Source: Escherichia phage AV124
Strand: one strand, 5' to 3'
Sequence record: OR352954
Length of the DNA: 64,000 nt
A program made the position numbers and the translations under genes. Each line of letters starts with the position of its first letter. Within the stretch, counting starts at the first letter, position 1. Positions 38,432-50,073 of the stretch are shown here, in pieces. The notes beneath the pieces are model-generated. The model was not told where the DNA came from. It saw only the letters and a program-made list of their open reading frames with translations, and did not search any database.

Positions 38432-39663
38432 GCAATCTTTTTAAATCCCGTGCAGATGCTCGTGTTTGTGCTGCAAGTCGTGGTATGAAAGTTGTGGACC
38501 GTGGTGTATCTCCGGCGGTCCTGGCAGAGGGGCGTTGGATGGTTGTCCCCAAAGACAGTATTGGTGCTTCCCCGGAAAAGACGATTTCCTTCGATATGGA
38601 AACTTACCCTGCGCCAACTGCTTCTATGTTCTTTGCGAGTCGGGGAGAAGCCCGAGCATTCTCTAAGACTGTACAGAATGCGAAGATTATCGATCATGCA
38701 AAGACAACAGCAGGACATGACAAAGAGGAGGGGGTTGTCAAGGACCTTGGCAAGCGTGGTAAGCGCTGGGAAGTGGTGTTCGTAGTTTCTGATGTAGAAG
38801 TGAGCATTACTGTTCCTCAGCTTCCAGAACCTACACCTGTGCCTATTAAGATTTCGGTTGTTGATGACACGAAAGCTGATCCCATTGTCATCATGACACC
38901 AGGCAACGTTTCCATCACACTTCCCGATGGAACTATTCATACTCTGGGCAGTAACAGCGAAATCTTTAACGACGTTGGTATGTTACTGTTAAACAACAAG
39001 ATCGACGAAGCCGTAGCTCTTATTGAGGCGGGAATCGCTGCAAAAGCTGAGGTGGCAATCGATCTTGGACCGGATATGAAGCTACTCGACGGTGTTCTAT
39101 ACTGGCACGGCATCAAACAAGAAAGCGGTATTGCTCGCCGTATTGTTTCGGATATCGAGACCGGGAAGTTCGATAACCGTTATGTTGAGTTCATGCGTAA
39201 ACTGATGCTCAACCCTTCTTACAAATCGGTTGAAATGCTGTACGACTTCCTGGAGCATAACAAGTTTGAGATCCTGGAGAATGGCAACATCTTGGCCTAC
39301 AAGGGGCTTAAACGCACTGAGAATGGTCCTCGTGACTGGTTCACAGGCTTGGTCCCTAACTGGGCTAACACCACCGTCACGATGCCAAGAAACATGGTTG
39401 AAGATGACCCAACCAAAGCTTGTAGTCAAGGGCTGCACATCGCTTCCAAGGAATATGCCCGCGATTATGGCAATGTGGTTGAGGTTTCTGTTGACCCGGC
39501 AGACATTGTTAGCGTACCATATAACTACAATAACAAGAAATGCCGATGCTGCCGCTATGAAGTATTGACAGGAAAAGAAAAGCCAGCAGGTGCTCCTGAT
39601 GTTATTGTTGTGGGTGTAAGGGGTGCTATCCTGGACGAAATTTATCTCGATAAGGAGGATTAA
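38428..39663 (+). CDS. rIIB: rIIB protector from prophage-induced early lysis
   Basis: C-terminal region matches T4 rIIB (CSQGLHIASKEY vs CSRGLHVCSKSY; IVSVPYNYNNKKCRCCRYEV vs VVSIPIDYNDAKMRTCQYEV); directly downstream of rIIA. Confidence 0.75.
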   Translation: MSNLFKSRADARVCAASRGMKVVDRGVSPAVLAEGRWMVVPKDSIGASPEKTISFDMETYPAPTASMFFASRGEARAFSKTVQNAKIIDHAKTTAGHDKEEGVVKDLGKRGKRWEVVFVVSDVEVSITVPQLPEPTPVPIKISVVDDTKADPIVIMTPGNVSITLPDGTIHTLGSNSEIFNDVGMLLLNNKIDEAVALIEAGIAAKAEVAIDLGPDMKLLDGVLYWHGIKQESGIARRIVSDIETGKFDNRYVEFMRKLMLNPSYKSVEMLYDFLEHNKFEILENGNILAYKGLKRTENGPRDWFTGLVPNWANTTVTMPRNMVEDDPTKACSQGLHIASKEYARDYGNVVEVSVDPADIVSVPYNYNNKKCRCCRYEVLTGKEKPAGAPDVIVVGVRGAILDEIYLDKED

Positions 39664-43102: not shown

Positions 43103-43805
43103 GGGAGGCCGTTTGAAGAAGAAAGTGATCATTCTTTATGATTACACTTCGGTCATGGCGCGTCCTTGGTTAGAGGCTGGCTATGAAGTTTGGACTTTTG
43201 ATGGTCAACATTCACCAGGAGTCACCCGCGAGGGTGACCTTGTTAAAGTCGGGATGTGGTTCTTCCACGACAAGACCGTTCAACAAGCTCAAGAGATCAA
43301 AGAAATGGTTGGTGACAATGTTCACATCGTCTTTGGTTTCCCGGAATGTACTCACCTGACCAATGCGGGTTCACGTCATTGGGCTAAGAAAAGAGCAGCA
43401 AACCCTAACTTCCAGAAGGAAGCAATGGAACTTTGCCTATTGGTAGAGAAGGTTGGAGATTTATATAATGTTCCGTGGGCCTTTGAAAACCCTGTCGGTG
43501 TTCTTTCTTCAATGTATCGAAAACCTGATTACATGTTTGATCCTAAGGATTACGGCGGGTATCTCCCAGCCAATGATATACACCCACTATATCCGCACGT
43601 ATACCCTCCTCAGGACGCGTATAACAAGAAGACGTGTATTTGGATGGGTAATGGCGCAAAACAGCCTGACAAGCTTCCTGTGAAGGAATTGTACAAGGAC
43701 AATCCGGGCTGGAAGAAGTGTGGTGGCAAATCCACCAAGACTAAAAATATTCGTAGTTGTACACCTCGCGGTTTTGCGGAGGCGTTTTACCAGAAAAATA
43801 AATGA
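43071..43805 (+). CDS. DNA cytosine-5 methyltransferase-like protein with degenerate SAM-binding motif (start ambiguous; alternative TTG at 43113)
   Basis: LEAGYEV (post-motif I region), FGFPECTHLTNAG (motif IV-like PC), AFENPVG (motif VI-like ENV); canonical FxGxGG replaced by YDYTSVMARP. Confidence 0.35.
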   Translation: MPITKGSVSTKGGRLKKKVIILYDYTSVMARPWLEAGYEVWTFDGQHSPGVTREGDLVKVGMWFFHDKTVQQAQEIKEMVGDNVHIVFGFPECTHLTNAGSRHWAKKRAANPNFQKEAMELCLLVEKVGDLYNVPWAFENPVGVLSSMYRKPDYMFDPKDYGGYLPANDIHPLYPHVYPPQDAYNKKTCIWMGNGAKQPDKLPVKELYKDNPGWKKCGGKSTKTKNIRSCTPRGFAEAFYQKNK

Positions 43806-45877
43806 GAGGGATAATGGGAAATGGACCGGATTGGGCGGCGTATCGCAAAGGCGGCAATGAAAACCCAAGAGCAGGTTTTGGAAGTAATCGCGGAGGCAAG
43901 TTGAGTTATAGTAACAATCGAGTAGAAGAGACCCTGGAATCAGTGCTGTCTGGCACCCGCATCATGGCTGTTCCCGAAATGAGTCTCTCTCTTGAAGCAG
44001 CACAGTATTTTAAGATCCGTTCTGCGGTATCCCCGGCGGATGGTATCACCCCGGTAGCAACATACTTGCCATATTATGATAAGTATGGGAAACTGACAGG
44101 ATTCAAGAAACGTGACTGGACGCTACAAAAGGAGAAGACGGGACACTTTTCAACTGTTGGCGCTGTGAAGGCATCATCTCAGTTCTTCGGGCAGCATGAA
44201 GCCTCTATGGGTGTTGGTCGTAAACAGATCAATATCGTAGAAGGTGAAGGTGACGTATGCGCAGCATGGCAGGCAGCGTATGAGATGGTCAAGGCTATGT
44301 CTACCAGCCCAAAAGCCAGTAAAGGCGTTAAGGACTGGGCCGATAGCATCCTAAAAGGTATCCGTCATATCCAGAACGACGAAGACATTGGCGGTCTTCC
44401 GACACTACCTTATGTCGGATTAAACTGTGGTACTGCAAACGCTGTTGATACTTTCGCAAACAACGAAAAGTTCATTCGCAGTTATGAGAAGGTAGTCTTA
44501 GGTTTTGATAACGATGAAGCAACAGCGTTAGAAAAAGAAAAGAAAATAAAGAAAGGTAAAGAAGCAACCGACGATGTAGCCAGCTTCCTGCTGTCAGAAA
44601 ACATTTACGTTGTGCGATATCCCAACGAGCGTAATGACCCGGATGGCTTTAAAGACATTCGTGACATGTTTGATGCTGGTAAGATACGTGAACTTTACGC
44701 AATGTTCACCAAAGCAGACGATCGCTATGTTCCTGATAAATTGATCGGTCTTAAGGATATCACCATTGAAAACCTTCGTAAGAAGAAAAAAGATGGTGTT
44801 CCATTACCGGGTATGCCGGGGCTTTACAACCTTACCAGAGGCCCTCGTACTGGTGAGCTTTGGACATTGACCGGGCCGTCTGGTGGTGGTAAGTCTACAA
44901 TCTCTCGTAAGATTGAATACGCAATCATTGATTATCTTCGTGATATGTCAATTCCCCGCCTCGATGGCTGGACCGAGAGTGAGAAAGTAGCTATCATCCG
45001 GCTGGAAGAGGATGAAGAAGAGTCTGTAAACAGCTTGTATGCTGAAGAGCTGAAGGTGGACCCTAAGGCATTTGTTGCTGACCCGGAGCAGTTCTTAACC
45101 GAAGAGCAACACCTTGAAATTCACCAACGCTGGATTAGGGAAGATAAGATTAAGATCTTCGATCACTTTGGTTCTATCCCGACAGACCAGCTTATTCAGA
45201 AACTTAAGCAGATGGTGTTCCTTGATGGTTGTAAATGGATCATCCTCGATCACCTGTCGATGGTAATCTCTGGTCTTAAGTCCGACAACGAACGTCGAGA
45301 CCTTGATAACATCATGACCGAGCTGGCGGCTTTCTGTAAGAAGTACGATGTTTTCATCTTATCAATCAGTCACATGAAGCGTAAAGAACTTCAGCTTCCG
45401 AAAGATAAAGATGGGAATCTATTACCGTTCTGGTATCCGGTCCGTAAAGAAGACCTGCGCGGTTCTGCGGCCCTTGAACAACTCTCATGGGTGGTTCTGG
45501 GTGTTGAACCAGAAGAGCTTCCTGACCGCTCCCGTGGACGTGTACGTATCGTGGTGCTGAAGAACCGCCCACACAAAAAACTGGGTATCGCTGATACAAT
45601 GGTTATGGATGACAACGGGCAGTTCTCCGATGCTTCCGGCTGGGAATGGGAAGATGGGATGTTCAAGCTTAATGGTGAAGTTATGCTTCGTCCTCAGAGT
45701 CTGATCCATCAACTCTCTCTGGAAACTCCGGTTGGAAAGGTAAATGTTCCGGCACCTGAGTATAAGCCAACCATCGATCTTGATAGGACACCAGTCCCTA
45801 CTCTTGATCCTGACGATGATACGCCTTTCGCCCCGATAGGATTGCAATACGCAAAACATGCAATTTATGTAATTTAA
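43802..45877 (+). CDS. primase-helicase (TOPRIM primase fused to DnaB-like helicase, T7 gp4-like)
   Basis: TOPRIM motifs IVEGEGD and GFDNDEA; helicase Walker A GPSGGGKST and DnaB-like WIILDHLS. Confidence 0.8.
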   Translation: MRGIMGNGPDWAAYRKGGNENPRAGFGSNRGGKLSYSNNRVEETLESVLSGTRIMAVPEMSLSLEAAQYFKIRSAVSPADGITPVATYLPYYDKYGKLTGFKKRDWTLQKEKTGHFSTVGAVKASSQFFGQHEASMGVGRKQINIVEGEGDVCAAWQAAYEMVKAMSTSPKASKGVKDWADSILKGIRHIQNDEDIGGLPTLPYVGLNCGTANAVDTFANNEKFIRSYEKVVLGFDNDEATALEKEKKIKKGKEATDDVASFLLSENIYVVRYPNERNDPDGFKDIRDMFDAGKIRELYAMFTKADDRYVPDKLIGLKDITIENLRKKKKDGVPLPGMPGLYNLTRGPRTGELWTLTGPSGGGKSTISRKIEYAIIDYLRDMSIPRLDGWTESEKVAIIRLEEDEEESVNSLYAEELKVDPKAFVADPEQFLTEEQHLEIHQRWIREDKIKIFDHFGSIPTDQLIQKLKQMVFLDGCKWIILDHLSMVISGLKSDNERRDLDNIMTELAAFCKKYDVFILSISHMKRKELQLPKDKDGNLLPFWYPVRKEDLRGSAALEQLSWVVLGVEPEELPDRSRGRVRIVVLKNRPHKKLGIADTMVMDDNGQFSDASGWEWEDGMFKLNGEVMLRPQSLIHQLSLETPVGKVNVPAPEYKPTIDLDRTPVPTLDPDDDTPFAPIGLQYAKHAIYVI

Positions 45878-45933
45878 TACCAACTGAGAGGTGGGCGACG
45901 GTACAGTCTAGCCCACTTTGAATAGGAGGAATC

Positions 45934-48300
45934 ATTAAAGGTCTGTTTATACTGGATAACGAGGCCGATGGCCTGTTAGACGAAGTAACTAAGTACCATT
46001 GTACTTTGCTGAAAGAATTCGGAGTCAACAACTGGAACCTGTTTTTAGACCCCGCACACCCTGAATATGAAAGCGCTGTAGCCTTTGCCAGGAGCAAGAA
46101 GGATGCTAATCTTACAATTCGTTCATACGACGAGCTGGAAAGCTTCCTGAAGACTTGTAGAGCCATTGCGTGTCACAACCTGTTTGGTTATGACCTGCGC
46201 CTGTGGAAGAAGTTATCGGGCATTGAATATGATATGTTCAAAGACCCGAAGTGCATGGGGACGATTGGGGATACACAGGTAAATCTCTACGACACCCTCT
46301 CTATGAGCCGTGTGCTTTATCCTGACCGTCCATTACCTAACGGTTGCCCTGACTCTGTTCTTAACCCGGTAACCGGGAAGCGAGACCGTGTAGGTCCTCA
46401 TGGCCTGTTGGCCTGGGGCTACCGCGTAGCAAACAAGAAAGTTCAGATCGATGACTGGCGTAACCAACCCTTGTGGGAATACGTTAATCGTGTCTGGGAA
46501 GACGTTTTAATCAACGAGTTAGTATGGCAATCCCTGATCGATGAATCTACAGGTGCTCGCTGGCCTGATGACAAGCAGTTCATGTACAAAGATAAACCGG
46601 AAGGGATGCGGCAGATCAACTGGAAGAACGCGCTACGCCGCCGTATGTTGACTGATTACCTGATGATTGAGCAAGAAATTCAGGGTGTTCCATTCAATAA
46701 GCATGAAGCTGAAAAGCTGAGAGACCGTATTGATGTAATGATGAAAGAGATTGAGGAAGAAGTAGAACCTCAACTCCCGCTCAAAGAGATGACGAAGTCT
46801 CAACAGCCAAAATTCCCTGCTAATCCTTTTGATGGTGCAGGAAGAATTTCCCATCACGGGTGGAATTGGTTAGAATACAAGCTGGGATATCCAGTTAATC
46901 GTGAAGCGCTGGAATTCAAAGGTCCACCGAAGACGGCGTTTAAAGGTAACGGTGATGTAAGTGCAGCAGGGGAAAGATACTGTATCCAGAATGGTGTTGA
47001 AGACCCGGCAGCGATGCCAGACTTCATTAGAAGCCAGATAAAGAAAGAGAATACCCTTGTCCCATTGCCACCAGACCTAATGGAAAAGGCAATTGCCGAT
47101 CTTCGTGCTGGAAAGATGCCAGACCTGATGGTTCCGATGAAGATCTCGAACCAGGACGACATCAAGAAGTACCTGATCCGCGATGCGGGATGGAAACCAA
47201 CGCTCTGGCGTGTTAAAGATGTGACGAAAGACCAGTTCAAAAAGACCCGCGATGATGCGGAGGTTGATGGTCTGGTGCGTAAGTACATCGAAGAACTTGG
47301 AGAGTCCGAGTATAAATCTCTGATTCTTGAGCACTTAAATAATAGTGACGCAAAGTTCAATATCTCGGAAAACAAGTTCGACCATCGTCATGGTTCTGAT
47401 CGTGTTTACGAGGAGGTCTTCAAGAAGTTCCGACGCAAAGCTCGTCAACTGCCGACTTCACCACAGTTGAAGGATAACTTTGGCAAGCTGTGTCCTAACC
47501 TTGAAGTTATCGATGTTCACTTGGCTAAACAGATTGTTAAGTGGCTGTCATTACGTAACCGTCGTTCTGTTCTCGACCCTATTGACGAGGATAAAAACGA
47601 TACAGGGCTGTTGAATCATCCTCGCCTGGCGATTGATGGAAAACTTCCAGCTCGTTTCTCTGGTATCACTAACACCGGGCGTTGTAAGCACACCATTTGT
47701 GCAAACATGCCTAAGCCAGATCCTAAGGTGTTGTTGGGTAAAGAGATGCGTGGTCTCTGGGGTGTGACCGATGAATATTACCAGGTCGGTATCGATGGTT
47801 CTAACCTCGAAGGTATGATCGCGGCATGGGGTGCATATCAGTTCGATGGTGGTGAATACCTCCGTATCATGGAAAGTGGAGATGCCCACGCACGAAACGC
47901 CGAGGCATACACCAAAGCTTCTGGTACTCTGGTAACGCGTAACGGTGGTAAAGGGGTAACCTACGGCATCATGTATGGTGCTCAGGCAGCTAAGATTGCA
48001 GCAATGCTTCACATTTCCCTTGACAAGGCACAGGCGGTAATCGATGCTTTCTGGGATAGTAACTTTGGTTTGAAAGGTCGTAAGGAATGGCTTGAAAACT
48101 TCTGGGAAGCAACGGGTAAACGTTATATCCCTGGTCTCGATGGTCGTAAGATTTGGACCCGTTCTAAGCACTCTCTTCTGAATGCTTTCCAGCAAAACGG
48201 TGGTGCATCTCTATTCGATCTGGTTGGTATCCTGCTTCACTGGGAACTGATCAAACGTGGCTGGTATGATGATGACGTTCGTCGCCTGATTTACTACCAT
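45934..48300 (+). CDS. DNA polymerase, family A (T7 gp5-like), 5' exon; apparent non-canonical start
   Basis: Alignable to T7 gp5 (LDNEADGLLDEVTKYHC exo I region, GPHGLLAWGYRV, motif B KGVTYGIMYG); frame open from 45922 with no ATG/GTG/TTG before conserved exo I motif; exon ends at YYH just before motif C. Confidence 0.75.
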
Positions 48301-49071
48301 AAATAACATTGTGGCTTTGTGAGGTAACTCACATCGAATAACTCCTTTAATTGCTGGGAGGCTAAGGTTGATATTCACTCGATAATAGAGTAAAATACAA
48401 CTATGTTAATCAGCAGCGAAGAGGATCAATGAAAAGTGTAAACTACCACGGATATGTGGTTTACGAAGACGGAACCATTATCGGAAGGCGCGGGAAACCG
48501 ATGCAAAAGGTAGATAATGGGAGGGGCTACCTAATTGTAAGTCTCTACCTTAATAAAAGAACAACGACAAAAGCTGTGCATGTTTTAGTGGCTGAGTGTT
48601 TCGTTCCCAACCCGGATAACCTCCCAGAGGTTGACCACAAGGATGGTGATAAGACCAACAACCACTACACCAACCTCCGCTGGGTAACAAGAGGTAAGAA
48701 CATAGAACATTGCTACACGTTGGAAGGTAGAAGTGCAACAGGTATTGCCAATGCAAACAGTAAGTTGTCAGAGGGAGAAGTGGAGAAAATCTGCTACCTC
48801 TTGCAGGAAGGCTTTAGTCAAGCTGCCATCCGAGACATGGGCTACCCATACGGAACAGTTAGGGCCATCAAGCAGAGACGACAATGGCTGCATATATCAT
48901 CTTCGTATCATTGGTCTTAACGTTCAGAGGCCAGCCGAAAGGCGTAGACGAGCGAGTGCCGTCGAAATGGGGAGCATCCTGAAAAGGATGGTGATATGGT
49001 CCGATCCTACGTGAAAACGTATGGCAACACGTAATGGTGTGGGCGAGATTAACGACCTCGCTAAACTTTTG
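48301..49071 (+). mobile_element. putative group I intron in DNA polymerase gene, carrying HNH homing endonuclease
   Basis: Polymerase frame stops at YYH-K-stop; in-frame C-terminal continuation DEYQ resumes at 49072 and restores motif C HDE; upstream exon ends in T, intron ends in G; internal ORF has own SD. Confidence 0.6.
48429..48920 (+). CDS. HNH homing endonuclease (intron-encoded)
   Basis: EVDHKDGDKTNNHYTNLRWVTRGKN HNH core; SD GAGGA before ATG. Confidence 0.7.
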   Translation: MKSVNYHGYVVYEDGTIIGRRGKPMQKVDNGRGYLIVSLYLNKRTTTKAVHVLVAECFVPNPDNLPEVDHKDGDKTNNHYTNLRWVTRGKNIEHCYTLEGRSATGIANANSKLSEGEVEKICYLLQEGFSQAAIRDMGYPYGTVRAIKQRRQWLHISSSYHWS

Positions 49072-49419
49072 GATGAATACCAGCTCCAGGTTCCTAAGAA
49101 ATACCTGAAGAAGTGGGAGTTCGACACCCTGGAAGAGGCAACAGCTTTCGTCAAAGAATGGGAAGCAAAAGGCCGGGTATTTGACGGACATGAATGGAGA
49201 AAGGCCGTCAAAGATGACAACGGTGATAAAGTCAAGGATGCGGAAGGCAATACAGTCTACGAAGGTATTTTCGGGGACGATGGTAAAATCCACATCCAGT
49301 ATTGCCCTGTTGGTGAAATGGTCGTAAGATGTGTAGAGAAGGCCGCTCGTATCATGGGCAGTCCTGTACATATCACAGGGGCATATCTTACGGGCGCCAA
49401 TTGGGCGCAATGTCATTGA
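49072..49419 (+). CDS. DNA polymerase, family A, 3' exon (motif C to C-terminus)
   Basis: DEYQ...TLEEATAFVKEWEAKGRVFDGHEW...ANWAQCH aligns with T7 gp5 C-terminus (HDEIQ...RTEEIAQVV...WVGDHW...PNWAICH). Confidence 0.65.
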   Translation, partial: DEYQLQVPKKYLKKWEFDTLEEATAFVKEWEAKGRVFDGHEWRKAVKDDNGDKVKDAEGNTVYEGIFGDDGKIHIQYCPVGEMVVRCVEKAARIMGSPVHITGAYLTGANWAQCH

Positions 49420-49437
49420 TATATAAGGATATTTTAT

Positions 49438-50073
49438 ATGGAATTATGGAAAGACATCCCCTCTACGGAGGGGAGATACCAAGTAAGTAATTATGGAAGA
49501 ATAAAAAGGCAACGGTATTCTCGCATAAACAGCAATCAAGCAGCAAGTTGGGAGCAAGTATATGAAACAAAGATATTAAAGCCTTCAAAGGACACACACG
49601 GTTACCTACAAGCTTGTTACCTTGTGGAAGGAGAGAGGACTATAGCCCTGGTCCATAGGCTTGTTGCAGAAGCCTTCCTTGCACCGCCAAGTCAAGAGTT
49701 GATAGATGAATGTATGAAGGCTGGTCACAAAGTGGTTCTTGTCAACCACAAGGATGGAAACCCACTTAACAACCATGTTGACAACCTTGAGTGGTGTACT
49801 CCTTCTTACAACAATGAGTATAGTCCCCAAGATTATTCAAATAGGTCTGGGGATAACTGTAAACATGCGGTTCTTAAAGAATCTGATGTTGACAAAATAC
49901 TGGAACTACGTGGTAAAATGAGTCAGCAGGCCATCGCGGATATGTTCGATGTGAAACAGATCACTATCAGCAACATTTTCACCGGAAGGTCTTGGTCTTC
50001 TTATACCGGAATACCTCGCAAAGAGCGTAACAAAGGAAAACGTGCAGCTAAGACCAAACTGTTATCACAATAG
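49438..50073 (+). CDS. HNH homing endonuclease (free-standing, NUMOD-like N-terminus)
   Basis: IPSTEGRYQVSNYGRIKR N-terminal module; HNH core VNHKDGNPLNNHVDNLEW. Confidence 0.7.
   Translation: MELWKDIPSTEGRYQVSNYGRIKRQRYSRINSNQAASWEQVYETKILKPSKDTHGYLQACYLVEGERTIALVHRLVAEAFLAPPSQELIDECMKAGHKVVLVNHKDGNPLNNHVDNLEWCTPSYNNEYSPQDYSNRSGDNCKHAVLKESDVDKILELRGKMSQQAIADMFDVKQITISNIFTGRSWSSYTGIPRKERNKGKRAAKTKLLSQ

Follow-up and report, generated by a model that had tools for sequence, protein, structure and literature searches.

A probable AUU initiation codon for the DNA polymerase of a clade of Klebsiella phages

The window analysed here is a stretch of 64,000 nt from Escherichia phage AV124 (record OR352954; all positions are those of the whole stretch), and its sequence identifies it as a Klebsiella Mydovirus (Vequintavirinae, rV5-like). 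On its plus strand lies a DNA polymerase gene that is probably translated from an ATT codon at 45934..45936, read as fMet; we put the probability of this at roughly 0.87. The codon follows the Shine-Dalgarno (SD) sequence AGGAGG (45924..45929, plus strand) after a 4-nt spacer, AATC, and is aligned with the canonical starts of related phages, all of which have GGAGG at the same place. Every sequence-level feature expected of a non-canonical start is found at this gene, and from the comparison with relatives we strongly infer that ribosomes initiate at AUU itself. AUU initiation is a known phenomenon, of which the polymerase is a new and well-supported example.

The start position in the phage and its relatives

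We read 45600-46320 directly and translated all three forward frames. The polymerase frame is open from 45922, immediately behind an in-frame TGA (45919..45921, plus strand) that forms its upstream limit. It reads ATA GGA GGA ATC ATT AAA GGT CTG TTT ATA CTG GAT AAC GAG GCC GAT GGC CTG TTA GAC GAA GTA ACT AAG TAC CAT TGT ACT TTG, which is translated as I G G I I K G L F I L D N E A D G L L D E V T K Y H C T L, and contains no ATG, GTG or TTG before the TTG at 46006. At that TTG a mechanical list of open reading frames (ORFs) opens the polymerase, giving an ORF of 766 amino acids at 46006..48306. The gene upstream, at 43802..45877 on the same strand in the ORF list, is annotated as a DNA primase/helicase in Seu621, NDO71 and others; its stop codon, TAA at 45875-45877, is in a different frame from the polymerase. 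Between the primase/helicase stop and the SD each of the three forward frames is closed, so that no upstream ORF feeds into the polymerase frame and no frameshift or fusion route leads into the polymerase.

A preliminary description of the window had reported the open frame behind the TGA, the lack of a canonical codon before 46006 and the strong SD, and had suggested a non-canonical start at ATC 45931, ATT 45934 or CTG 45943, upstream of an LDNEAD motif at 45952. Direct reading agrees with it on each of these positions. Comparison with the polymerase starts of related phages likewise supports a non-canonical start and narrows the choice to one of the three codons: ATT has both homology and SD spacing in its favor, whereas ATC and CTG have neither.

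The megablast search with 45500-48400 matched 77 phage records. The closest matches (97-99% identity) are Mydovirus phages of Klebsiella (KpS8, Seu621, BIS47, KB57, VLCpiM5a/b, KP12 and others), within the Vequintavirinae, here the rV5-like myoviruses of ~145 kb; the Seunavirus phages of Salmonella, PVP-SE1 and SSE121, are ~82% identical to the window. The start site was aligned across GenBank loci and 15 IMG/VR loci found with the N-terminal protein. In PVP-SE1 the sequence runs ...ATAGGAGGAGC ATG AAA GGT TTG TTT ATA ACG GAC AAC GAA..., and the annotated polymerase start is that ATG. ATG also occupies the aligned position in an SSE121-like contig, an rV5-like contig (L017), three further loci (L013, L016 and L019), NDO71, K18PH07C1, Mydo and KNP2. 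The codon there is GTG in Iguana_ER37 and TTG in Erwinia phage pEp_SNUABM_01, L015 and L018. It is ATT in the window, in all phages of the KpS8/BIS47/KB57 type and in Raoultella phage Ro1, and ATA in Enterobacter phage FENT2 (L025, 416-418). A canonical start is therefore aligned with ATT 45934 in at least ten relatives, which places the near-cognate codon exactly at the start position of its orthologues. The codons that follow are AAA (or AGA) and GGN, then one for Leu, in all but the most distant contig (L019), so the start position is fixed across the subfamily and only the initiator triplet varies. Behind the canonical starts of PVP-SE1, the SSE121-like and rV5-like phages, Iguana_ER37 and the Erwinia phages, the encoded peptide is Lys-Gly-Leu-Phe, as in the window.

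The spacing between SD and start is 3-5 nt at the polymerase gene of the relatives and 4 nt in the window. Genes of the window with a confident ATG fall into the same spacing class, including TAAGGAGGATTA-ATG at 39663 (written out, TAAGGAGG-ATTA-ATG) and TAAGGAG-N5-ATG at 1197, 3262, 7517 and 58893. A GGAGG core is found in only 4 of 40 confident window genes, and codon apart, the polymerase initiation site is among the strongest of the window. The same strong SD is found in the relatives that have ATG and is thus no specific compensation for a weak codon. In a crude scan of the 94 ORFs of the window, no second gene had a near-cognate codon and a strong SD together with a long open extension at its N-terminus, indicating that the phage does not use near-cognate starts generally.

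The codons behind the ATT have been maintained as protein-coding sequence. Over codons 2-25, the window differs from FENT2 by 7 synonymous and 0 non-synonymous codon changes, from PVP-SE1 by 8 and 2, from the Mydo/KNP2-type sequence (L011) by 13 and 2 and from L016 by 14 and 2, respectively. Judged by these counts, the 24 codons between ATT and TTG 46006 are under purifying selection and conserved as coding sequence across the subfamily.

The ATT is also widespread. In a search with a 72-nt query (45919-45990), 45919-45989 was 100% identical in 16 records, which represent 13 distinct Klebsiella phages isolated in different laboratories and sequenced in Russia, Poland, Spain, the USA and elsewhere. 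Ro1 carries ATT as well; its polymerase region and the window share ~92% identity, rising to 97% in the 72-nt start stretch. ATT is also present in the metagenome assemblies ERZ1027032 NODE_1, ERZ773221 NODE_163 (the same contig as IMG/VR 3300045988_120042) and IMG/VR 3300045988_106185. When metagenome and viral collections were scanned for the context TAGGAGGAATCATNAAAGGT, the polymerase-linked matches all had ATT or ATA and never ATG; chance matches outside polymerase genes (L027-29, L032, L034-39 and L043) were set aside. ATA was found twice independently, in FENT2 and in JACCDR011913344.1 (L031), which are one synonymous change apart.

The preliminary description had considered that a single-nucleotide change here, set against an ATG at the same place in relatives, would speak against a non-canonical start. 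Seunavirus does have ATG, so this is literally true, but it does not refute the proposed start because ATT is no single-genome variant but is fixed across several species, and the downstream codons are under purifying selection.

The ATA of FENT2 bears on how the near-cognate state arose. Over nt 150-450, the FENT2 polymerase is of the Seunavirus type, with 83-85% identity to PVP-SE1/SSE121 versus 79% to the window, yet FENT2 shares with the ATT clade a 1-nt T insertion in the spacer (GGAGGAATC-ATH, where SSE121 has GGAGGAAC-ATG). The ATH state (ATT or ATA) has therefore either arisen twice or passed between lineages. It occurs in two lineages that are ~20% diverged, and the N-terminal peptide is undecayed in both.

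Under the proposed mechanism, the SD would position the 30S subunit 4 nt upstream of the codon, and initiator fMet-tRNA would pair with the near-cognate AUU in ordinary SD-directed 30S initiation. The product would begin fMet-Lys-Gly-Leu-Phe-Ile-Leu-Asp8-Asn-Glu10 and keep the catalytic residues of the Exo I motif. The AUU itself would derive from an ancestral AUG by the change of ATG to ATT together with the 1-nt T insertion in the spacer, fixed in one lineage. A protein started at ATT should yield the tryptic peptide GLFILDNEADGLLDEVTK (residues 3-20), whereas one started at the TTG would begin MLKEFGVNNW..., with an N-terminal peptide of the MLKEFGVNNWNLFLDPAHPEYESAVAFAR type. On ATT starts in Mydovirus or in the DNA polymerases of phages, our search of the literature found nothing relevant; nor did we find this start described in any paper or database record, or proteomic or ribosome profiling data on the polymerase gene.

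Proofreading motif, annotated start and competing explanations

The choice of start decides whether the polymerase has a complete proofreading site. In a phmmer search of PDB sequences with the N-terminal 286 amino acids, the sole match was T7 gp5 (6n7w_H; E 0.0012), with residues 6-177 of the query aligned to T7 residues 3-145. LDNEA stands opposite SDIEA and, more widely, ILDNEADGLLDEVTKYHC opposite T7 VSDIEANALLESVTKFHC. The alignment identifies Asp8-Asn-Glu10 (45955..45963, plus strand) as the Exo I motif of the 3'-5' exonuclease domain, the remainder of which is intact. Asp5 and Glu7 of T7 gp5, the counterparts of Asp8 and Glu10, coordinate metal at the 3'-5' exonuclease site, and the D5A/E7A enzyme is without exonuclease activity. 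As in T7 gp5, a family A polymerase with an N-terminal 3'-5' exonuclease, Exo I is found among the first 10 residues, and the active site is complete or incomplete according to the exact codon used as the start. The two proteins otherwise differ: similarity is low (E 0.0012 over the N-terminal domain), the phage product has 904 amino acids versus 704, and its gene contains a probable group I intron. In T7, gene 5 has an ATG start.

The TTG at 46006..46008 (plus strand) encodes Leu25 and serves as the polymerase start both in the ORF list and in the GenBank records checked. The annotated starts of Seu621, BIS47 and KB57 map to it, that of VLCpiM5b lies later still, and the GenBank polymerase of FENT2 is likewise opened at a downstream TTG; in every record whose start was checked (these five and Ro1), the polymerase begins at or after Leu25. 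The deposited proteins are thus without the Exo I catalytic residues. Under the 45919-45989 match, no feature is annotated in 15 of the 16 records, the exception being an ENA record with an apparently shifted feature table, and the Ro1 and FENT2 records carry no annotation over the corresponding stretch either; public records, in other words, treat the first 24 codons as intergenic. This is almost certainly a systematic annotation error across the clade, which cuts off 24 N-terminal residues, including part of the proofreading active site.

Four other explanations have to be weighed. The records could be right: translation would then begin at TTG 46006, the first canonical start and the one that gene callers use, leaving a polymerase without its first 24 residues, without Exo I and probably without proofreading, behind a decaying remnant of frame. 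The preliminary description had pointed out, correctly as the alignment to T7 gp5 shows, that such a start would remove the Exo I motif, but the rest of the exonuclease domain shows no corresponding loss. The TTG has no purine-rich SD (gtaactaagtaccattgtact-TTG), and the codon aligned with it is CTT, CTA, CTG or GTA in most relatives. A remnant would have gathered frameshifts or non-synonymous changes across species such as KpS8, BIS47, KB57 and Ro1, whereas the 24 upstream codons are identical at the protein level between the ATT and ATA lineages despite their synonymous changes. We therefore regard a start at this TTG as very unlikely; by its sequence and context, it is an ordinary leucine codon and not the true start. 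Initiation at another in-frame near-cognate codon is equally improbable. ATC 45931, CTG 45943 and ATA 45922 are all in frame and 3' of the TGA, but ATC stands 1 nt and CTG 13 nt after the SD, ATA 45922 precedes it, and none is aligned with a start in the relatives, which have spacer (AGC, AAC, AGT) or Leu4 codons (TTG, CTT, TTA) at these positions.

Termination-reinitiation would make use of a mini-ORF, TTG (45917) AAT AGG AGG AAT CAT TAA (45936-45938), whose stop codon overlaps the ATT as ATTAA, with ribosomes restarting there. The mini-ORF is present in the window, in KpS8-like phages and in Ro1, but the arrangement is not conserved in FENT2, where this frame continues past the ATA codon. 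Its TTG is without an SD and lies inside the 3' arm of a conserved hairpin, and the SD of the polymerase would fall within the mini-ORF. We consider this route hardly credible. An error of sequencing or assembly would be simple enough, ATT being one base away from ATG, but the identical ATT in 13 distinct isolates, Ro1 and three metagenome assemblies, and the absence of ATG from the polymerase-linked matches to the scanned context, effectively refute it; the misread canonical start that the preliminary description had allowed for can be discounted.

Some observations do weigh against initiation at AUU, or against reading too much into it. Within the ATT clade there are only 1-2 synonymous differences, and the argument from selection is partly confounded, as part of the synonymous divergence could be older than the loss of ATG. 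In E. coli reporters AUU initiates poorly, an unexpected trait in the start of an essential replication enzyme, although a polymerase is required in catalytic amounts only. Any regulatory role of the codon, be it sensing of initiation factor IF3 or control of dosage, is argued purely by analogy.

Leader hairpin, homing endonucleases and the split gene

The 5' leader of the polymerase gene contains a conserved hairpin at 45889..45918 (plus strand), GGUGGGC-GAC-GGUACA-GUC-UA-GCCCACU, whose 3' end lies 5 nt before the SD. It consists of an 8-bp outer and a 3-bp inner stem, a hexaloop GGUACA (45900-45905) and a 2-nt 3' bulge (45909-45910). In an alignment of 12 Vequintavirinae, 88.9% of the cells are paired and 7 of the 11 pairs show compensatory changes; none of 500 shuffles reached the observed covariation score. 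The same helix was obtained independently from RNAalifold and from the minimum free energy fold. The hairpin is present across the Mydovirus, Seunavirus, Erwinia-phage and rV5-like relatives, with the loop consensus RRUAYA. At 45917 the window has T where all other genomes of the ATT clade have C (GCCCACT versus GCCCACC), which turns one G-C pair into G-U.

The leader hairpin matched no Rfam family. It was found once in the 64-kb window: a covariance model (R1, filters off) scored it at 49.7 bits and the next best site at 13.6, and neither this model nor an ad hoc hairpin scan detected a further copy there, the other ~80 kb of the genome lying outside the search. A scan of 45300-46300 for promoters and terminators found nothing; the hairpin has no U-tract, which rules out a classical intrinsic terminator. 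With 11 bp, it is also too short for a typical RNase III site.

The hairpin could be a translational operator, or an element that stabilizes or processes the mRNA. As a lead we take the translational operator of T4/RB69 gp43, a hairpin and SD bound by the polymerase itself. The likeness is one of anatomy only, namely a hairpin, conserved in its loop as well, that directly precedes the polymerase SD. Unlike gp43, the phage polymerase belongs to family A and not B, there is no sequence similarity, and in some relatives the hairpin and SD drive an HNH gene behind which the polymerase is coupled. By this analogy, the hairpin might be bound by the polymerase, as in T4 gp43, or by another phage protein.

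These relatives carry a gene for an HNH homing endonuclease exactly at the start codon of the polymerase: NDO71 (L021, 335-900), Iguana_ER37 (L024, 485-1080) and, judged by sequence, K18PH07C1, Mydo and KNP2. The HNH gene captures the hairpin and SD (GGAGGAACA-ATG in NDO71, GGAGGAATA-TTG-AAA in Iguana), and the polymerase is coupled behind it through an ATGA or GTGA overlap, with a canonical start. Its insertion exactly at the start codon makes the polymerase start a homing site. The phages with the HNH gene are 85.6% identical to the window over 45939-46450, as opposed to 96.8% over the whole 45939-48300 match, and this unusually diverged stretch, ~500 nt at the beginning of the gene, resembles a co-conversion tract. 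One idea suggested by these sequences is that the ATT allele is a cleavage-resistant variant, its target site having been destroyed by the change of ATG to ATH and the 1-nt insertion. KB57 (L022, 434-901), VLCpiM5a and KPP-1 have an extra small gene between the primase/helicase and the hairpin, and keep the hairpin and the ATT start 3' of it; this intergenic junction is thus an insertion hotspot.

Two larger proposals follow from these features. The weak AUU/AUA start and the covarying hairpin may be the two parts of a module dedicated to the translational control of polymerase dosage, in which an IF3-discriminated AUU could make polymerase synthesis track the translational state of the host; or else the change of ATG to ATH with its 1-nt insertion may have been fixed as an escape from HNH cleavage at the start codon. 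This is speculation to which we give only a small chance of being right.

At its other end, the polymerase gene is split. Exon 1 (45934..48300, plus strand) has 789 codons and, in a tblastn comparison with the intron-less polymerase of Seu621, matches residues 1-789 at 99.6% identity. A probable group I intron of 771 nt (48301..49071, plus strand) then interrupts the conserved His-Asp-Glu (YYH|DEY) of the polymerase domain. Relative to Seu621 DNA, it is a precise insertion (2561|2562 = 48300|49072), and the 48306 end of the ORF list is consequently a stop within the intron. Comparison with Seu621 and the splice junctions define exon 2 (49072..49419, plus strand), of 115 codons and a stop. The junctions, ...CAT|AAA... 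and ...TTTTG|GAT, have a 5' exon ending in T and an intron ending in G, and the spliced frame is continuous. The Rfam model Intron_gpI (RF00028) matched 48291-49023 over its full length with 39.3 bits (E 1.2e-7), below its gathering score of 50. The intron encodes an HNH homing endonuclease of 163 amino acids (48429..48920, plus strand; Pfam HNH_3, E 4.1e-10). On the 904-amino-acid spliced polymerase, Pfam DNA_pol_A scored 34.6 bits against a cut-off of 34.3 (E 1.3e-8), and the homologues are annotated as DNA polymerase. Directly 3' of the polymerase, at 49438-50073, is a free-standing gene that resembles a homing endonuclease (NUMOD4, HNH_3 and HTH); Seu621 has this gene too, under the annotation of a hypothetical protein.

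Known near-cognate starts and significance

AUU, AUC and AUA are recognized non-canonical initiators of bacteria, against which IF3 discriminates (He et al. 2017, PMC5499595). AUU starts in E. coli are limited to infC, which encodes IF3, and pcnB, which encodes poly(A) polymerase (PMC5499595). Reporter output from near-cognate codons is ~1-2% of that from AUG, but context can raise it considerably, infC giving thousands of IF3 molecules per cell (PMC5499595). AUU mRNAs are poor competitors at low temperature, as are all non-AUG mRNAs under nutrient limitation or ppGpp (PMC5499595).

The phage polymerase resembles infC and pcnB in having AUU behind a functional SD where a canonical start is expected, in the conservation of this arrangement in related genomes and in the IF3 discrimination and low or regulated expression that would be expected of it (PMC5499595). 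By analogy with these two genes, the AUU allele would lower polymerase output from an otherwise strong site and make that output responsive to IF3 and to host physiology. Unlike them, the polymerase is a phage replication gene and not a host gene, and there is no reason to expect an IF3 autoregulatory loop. It also differs from infC, whose start is universally non-canonical, in that its codon varies within the family among ATG, GTG, TTG, ATT and ATA. Among phage genes, a T4 rIIB mutant with AUG changed to AUA kept ~15% of translation, and constructs of the HB-3 murein hydrolase with AUA, AUU or AUC gave 5-7.5% (both as cited in PMC5499595). These cases show that in enterobacteria the translation of phage proteins can begin at AUA and AUU, if less efficiently. 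They were laboratory mutants and constructs, whereas the polymerase codon occurs naturally and is fixed as the wild type of a clade.

As a new instance of a known mechanism, and not a new mechanism, the finding is a modest advance, but it has practical consequences. Gene callers limited to ATG, GTG and TTG will keep repeating the annotation error, and cloning or modelling from the deposited records would give a truncated, probably exonuclease-defective enzyme. The Klebsiella phages concerned are therapeutic candidates, for the engineering of which correct gene models matter. For the biology of the family, an AUU start fixed in one clade and an AUA start in a sister, on an essential phage replication gene and beside ATG, GTG and TTG alleles, would constitute a natural allelic series, with which one may ask how the strength of a start codon and IF3 discrimination tune the dosage of a phage enzyme.

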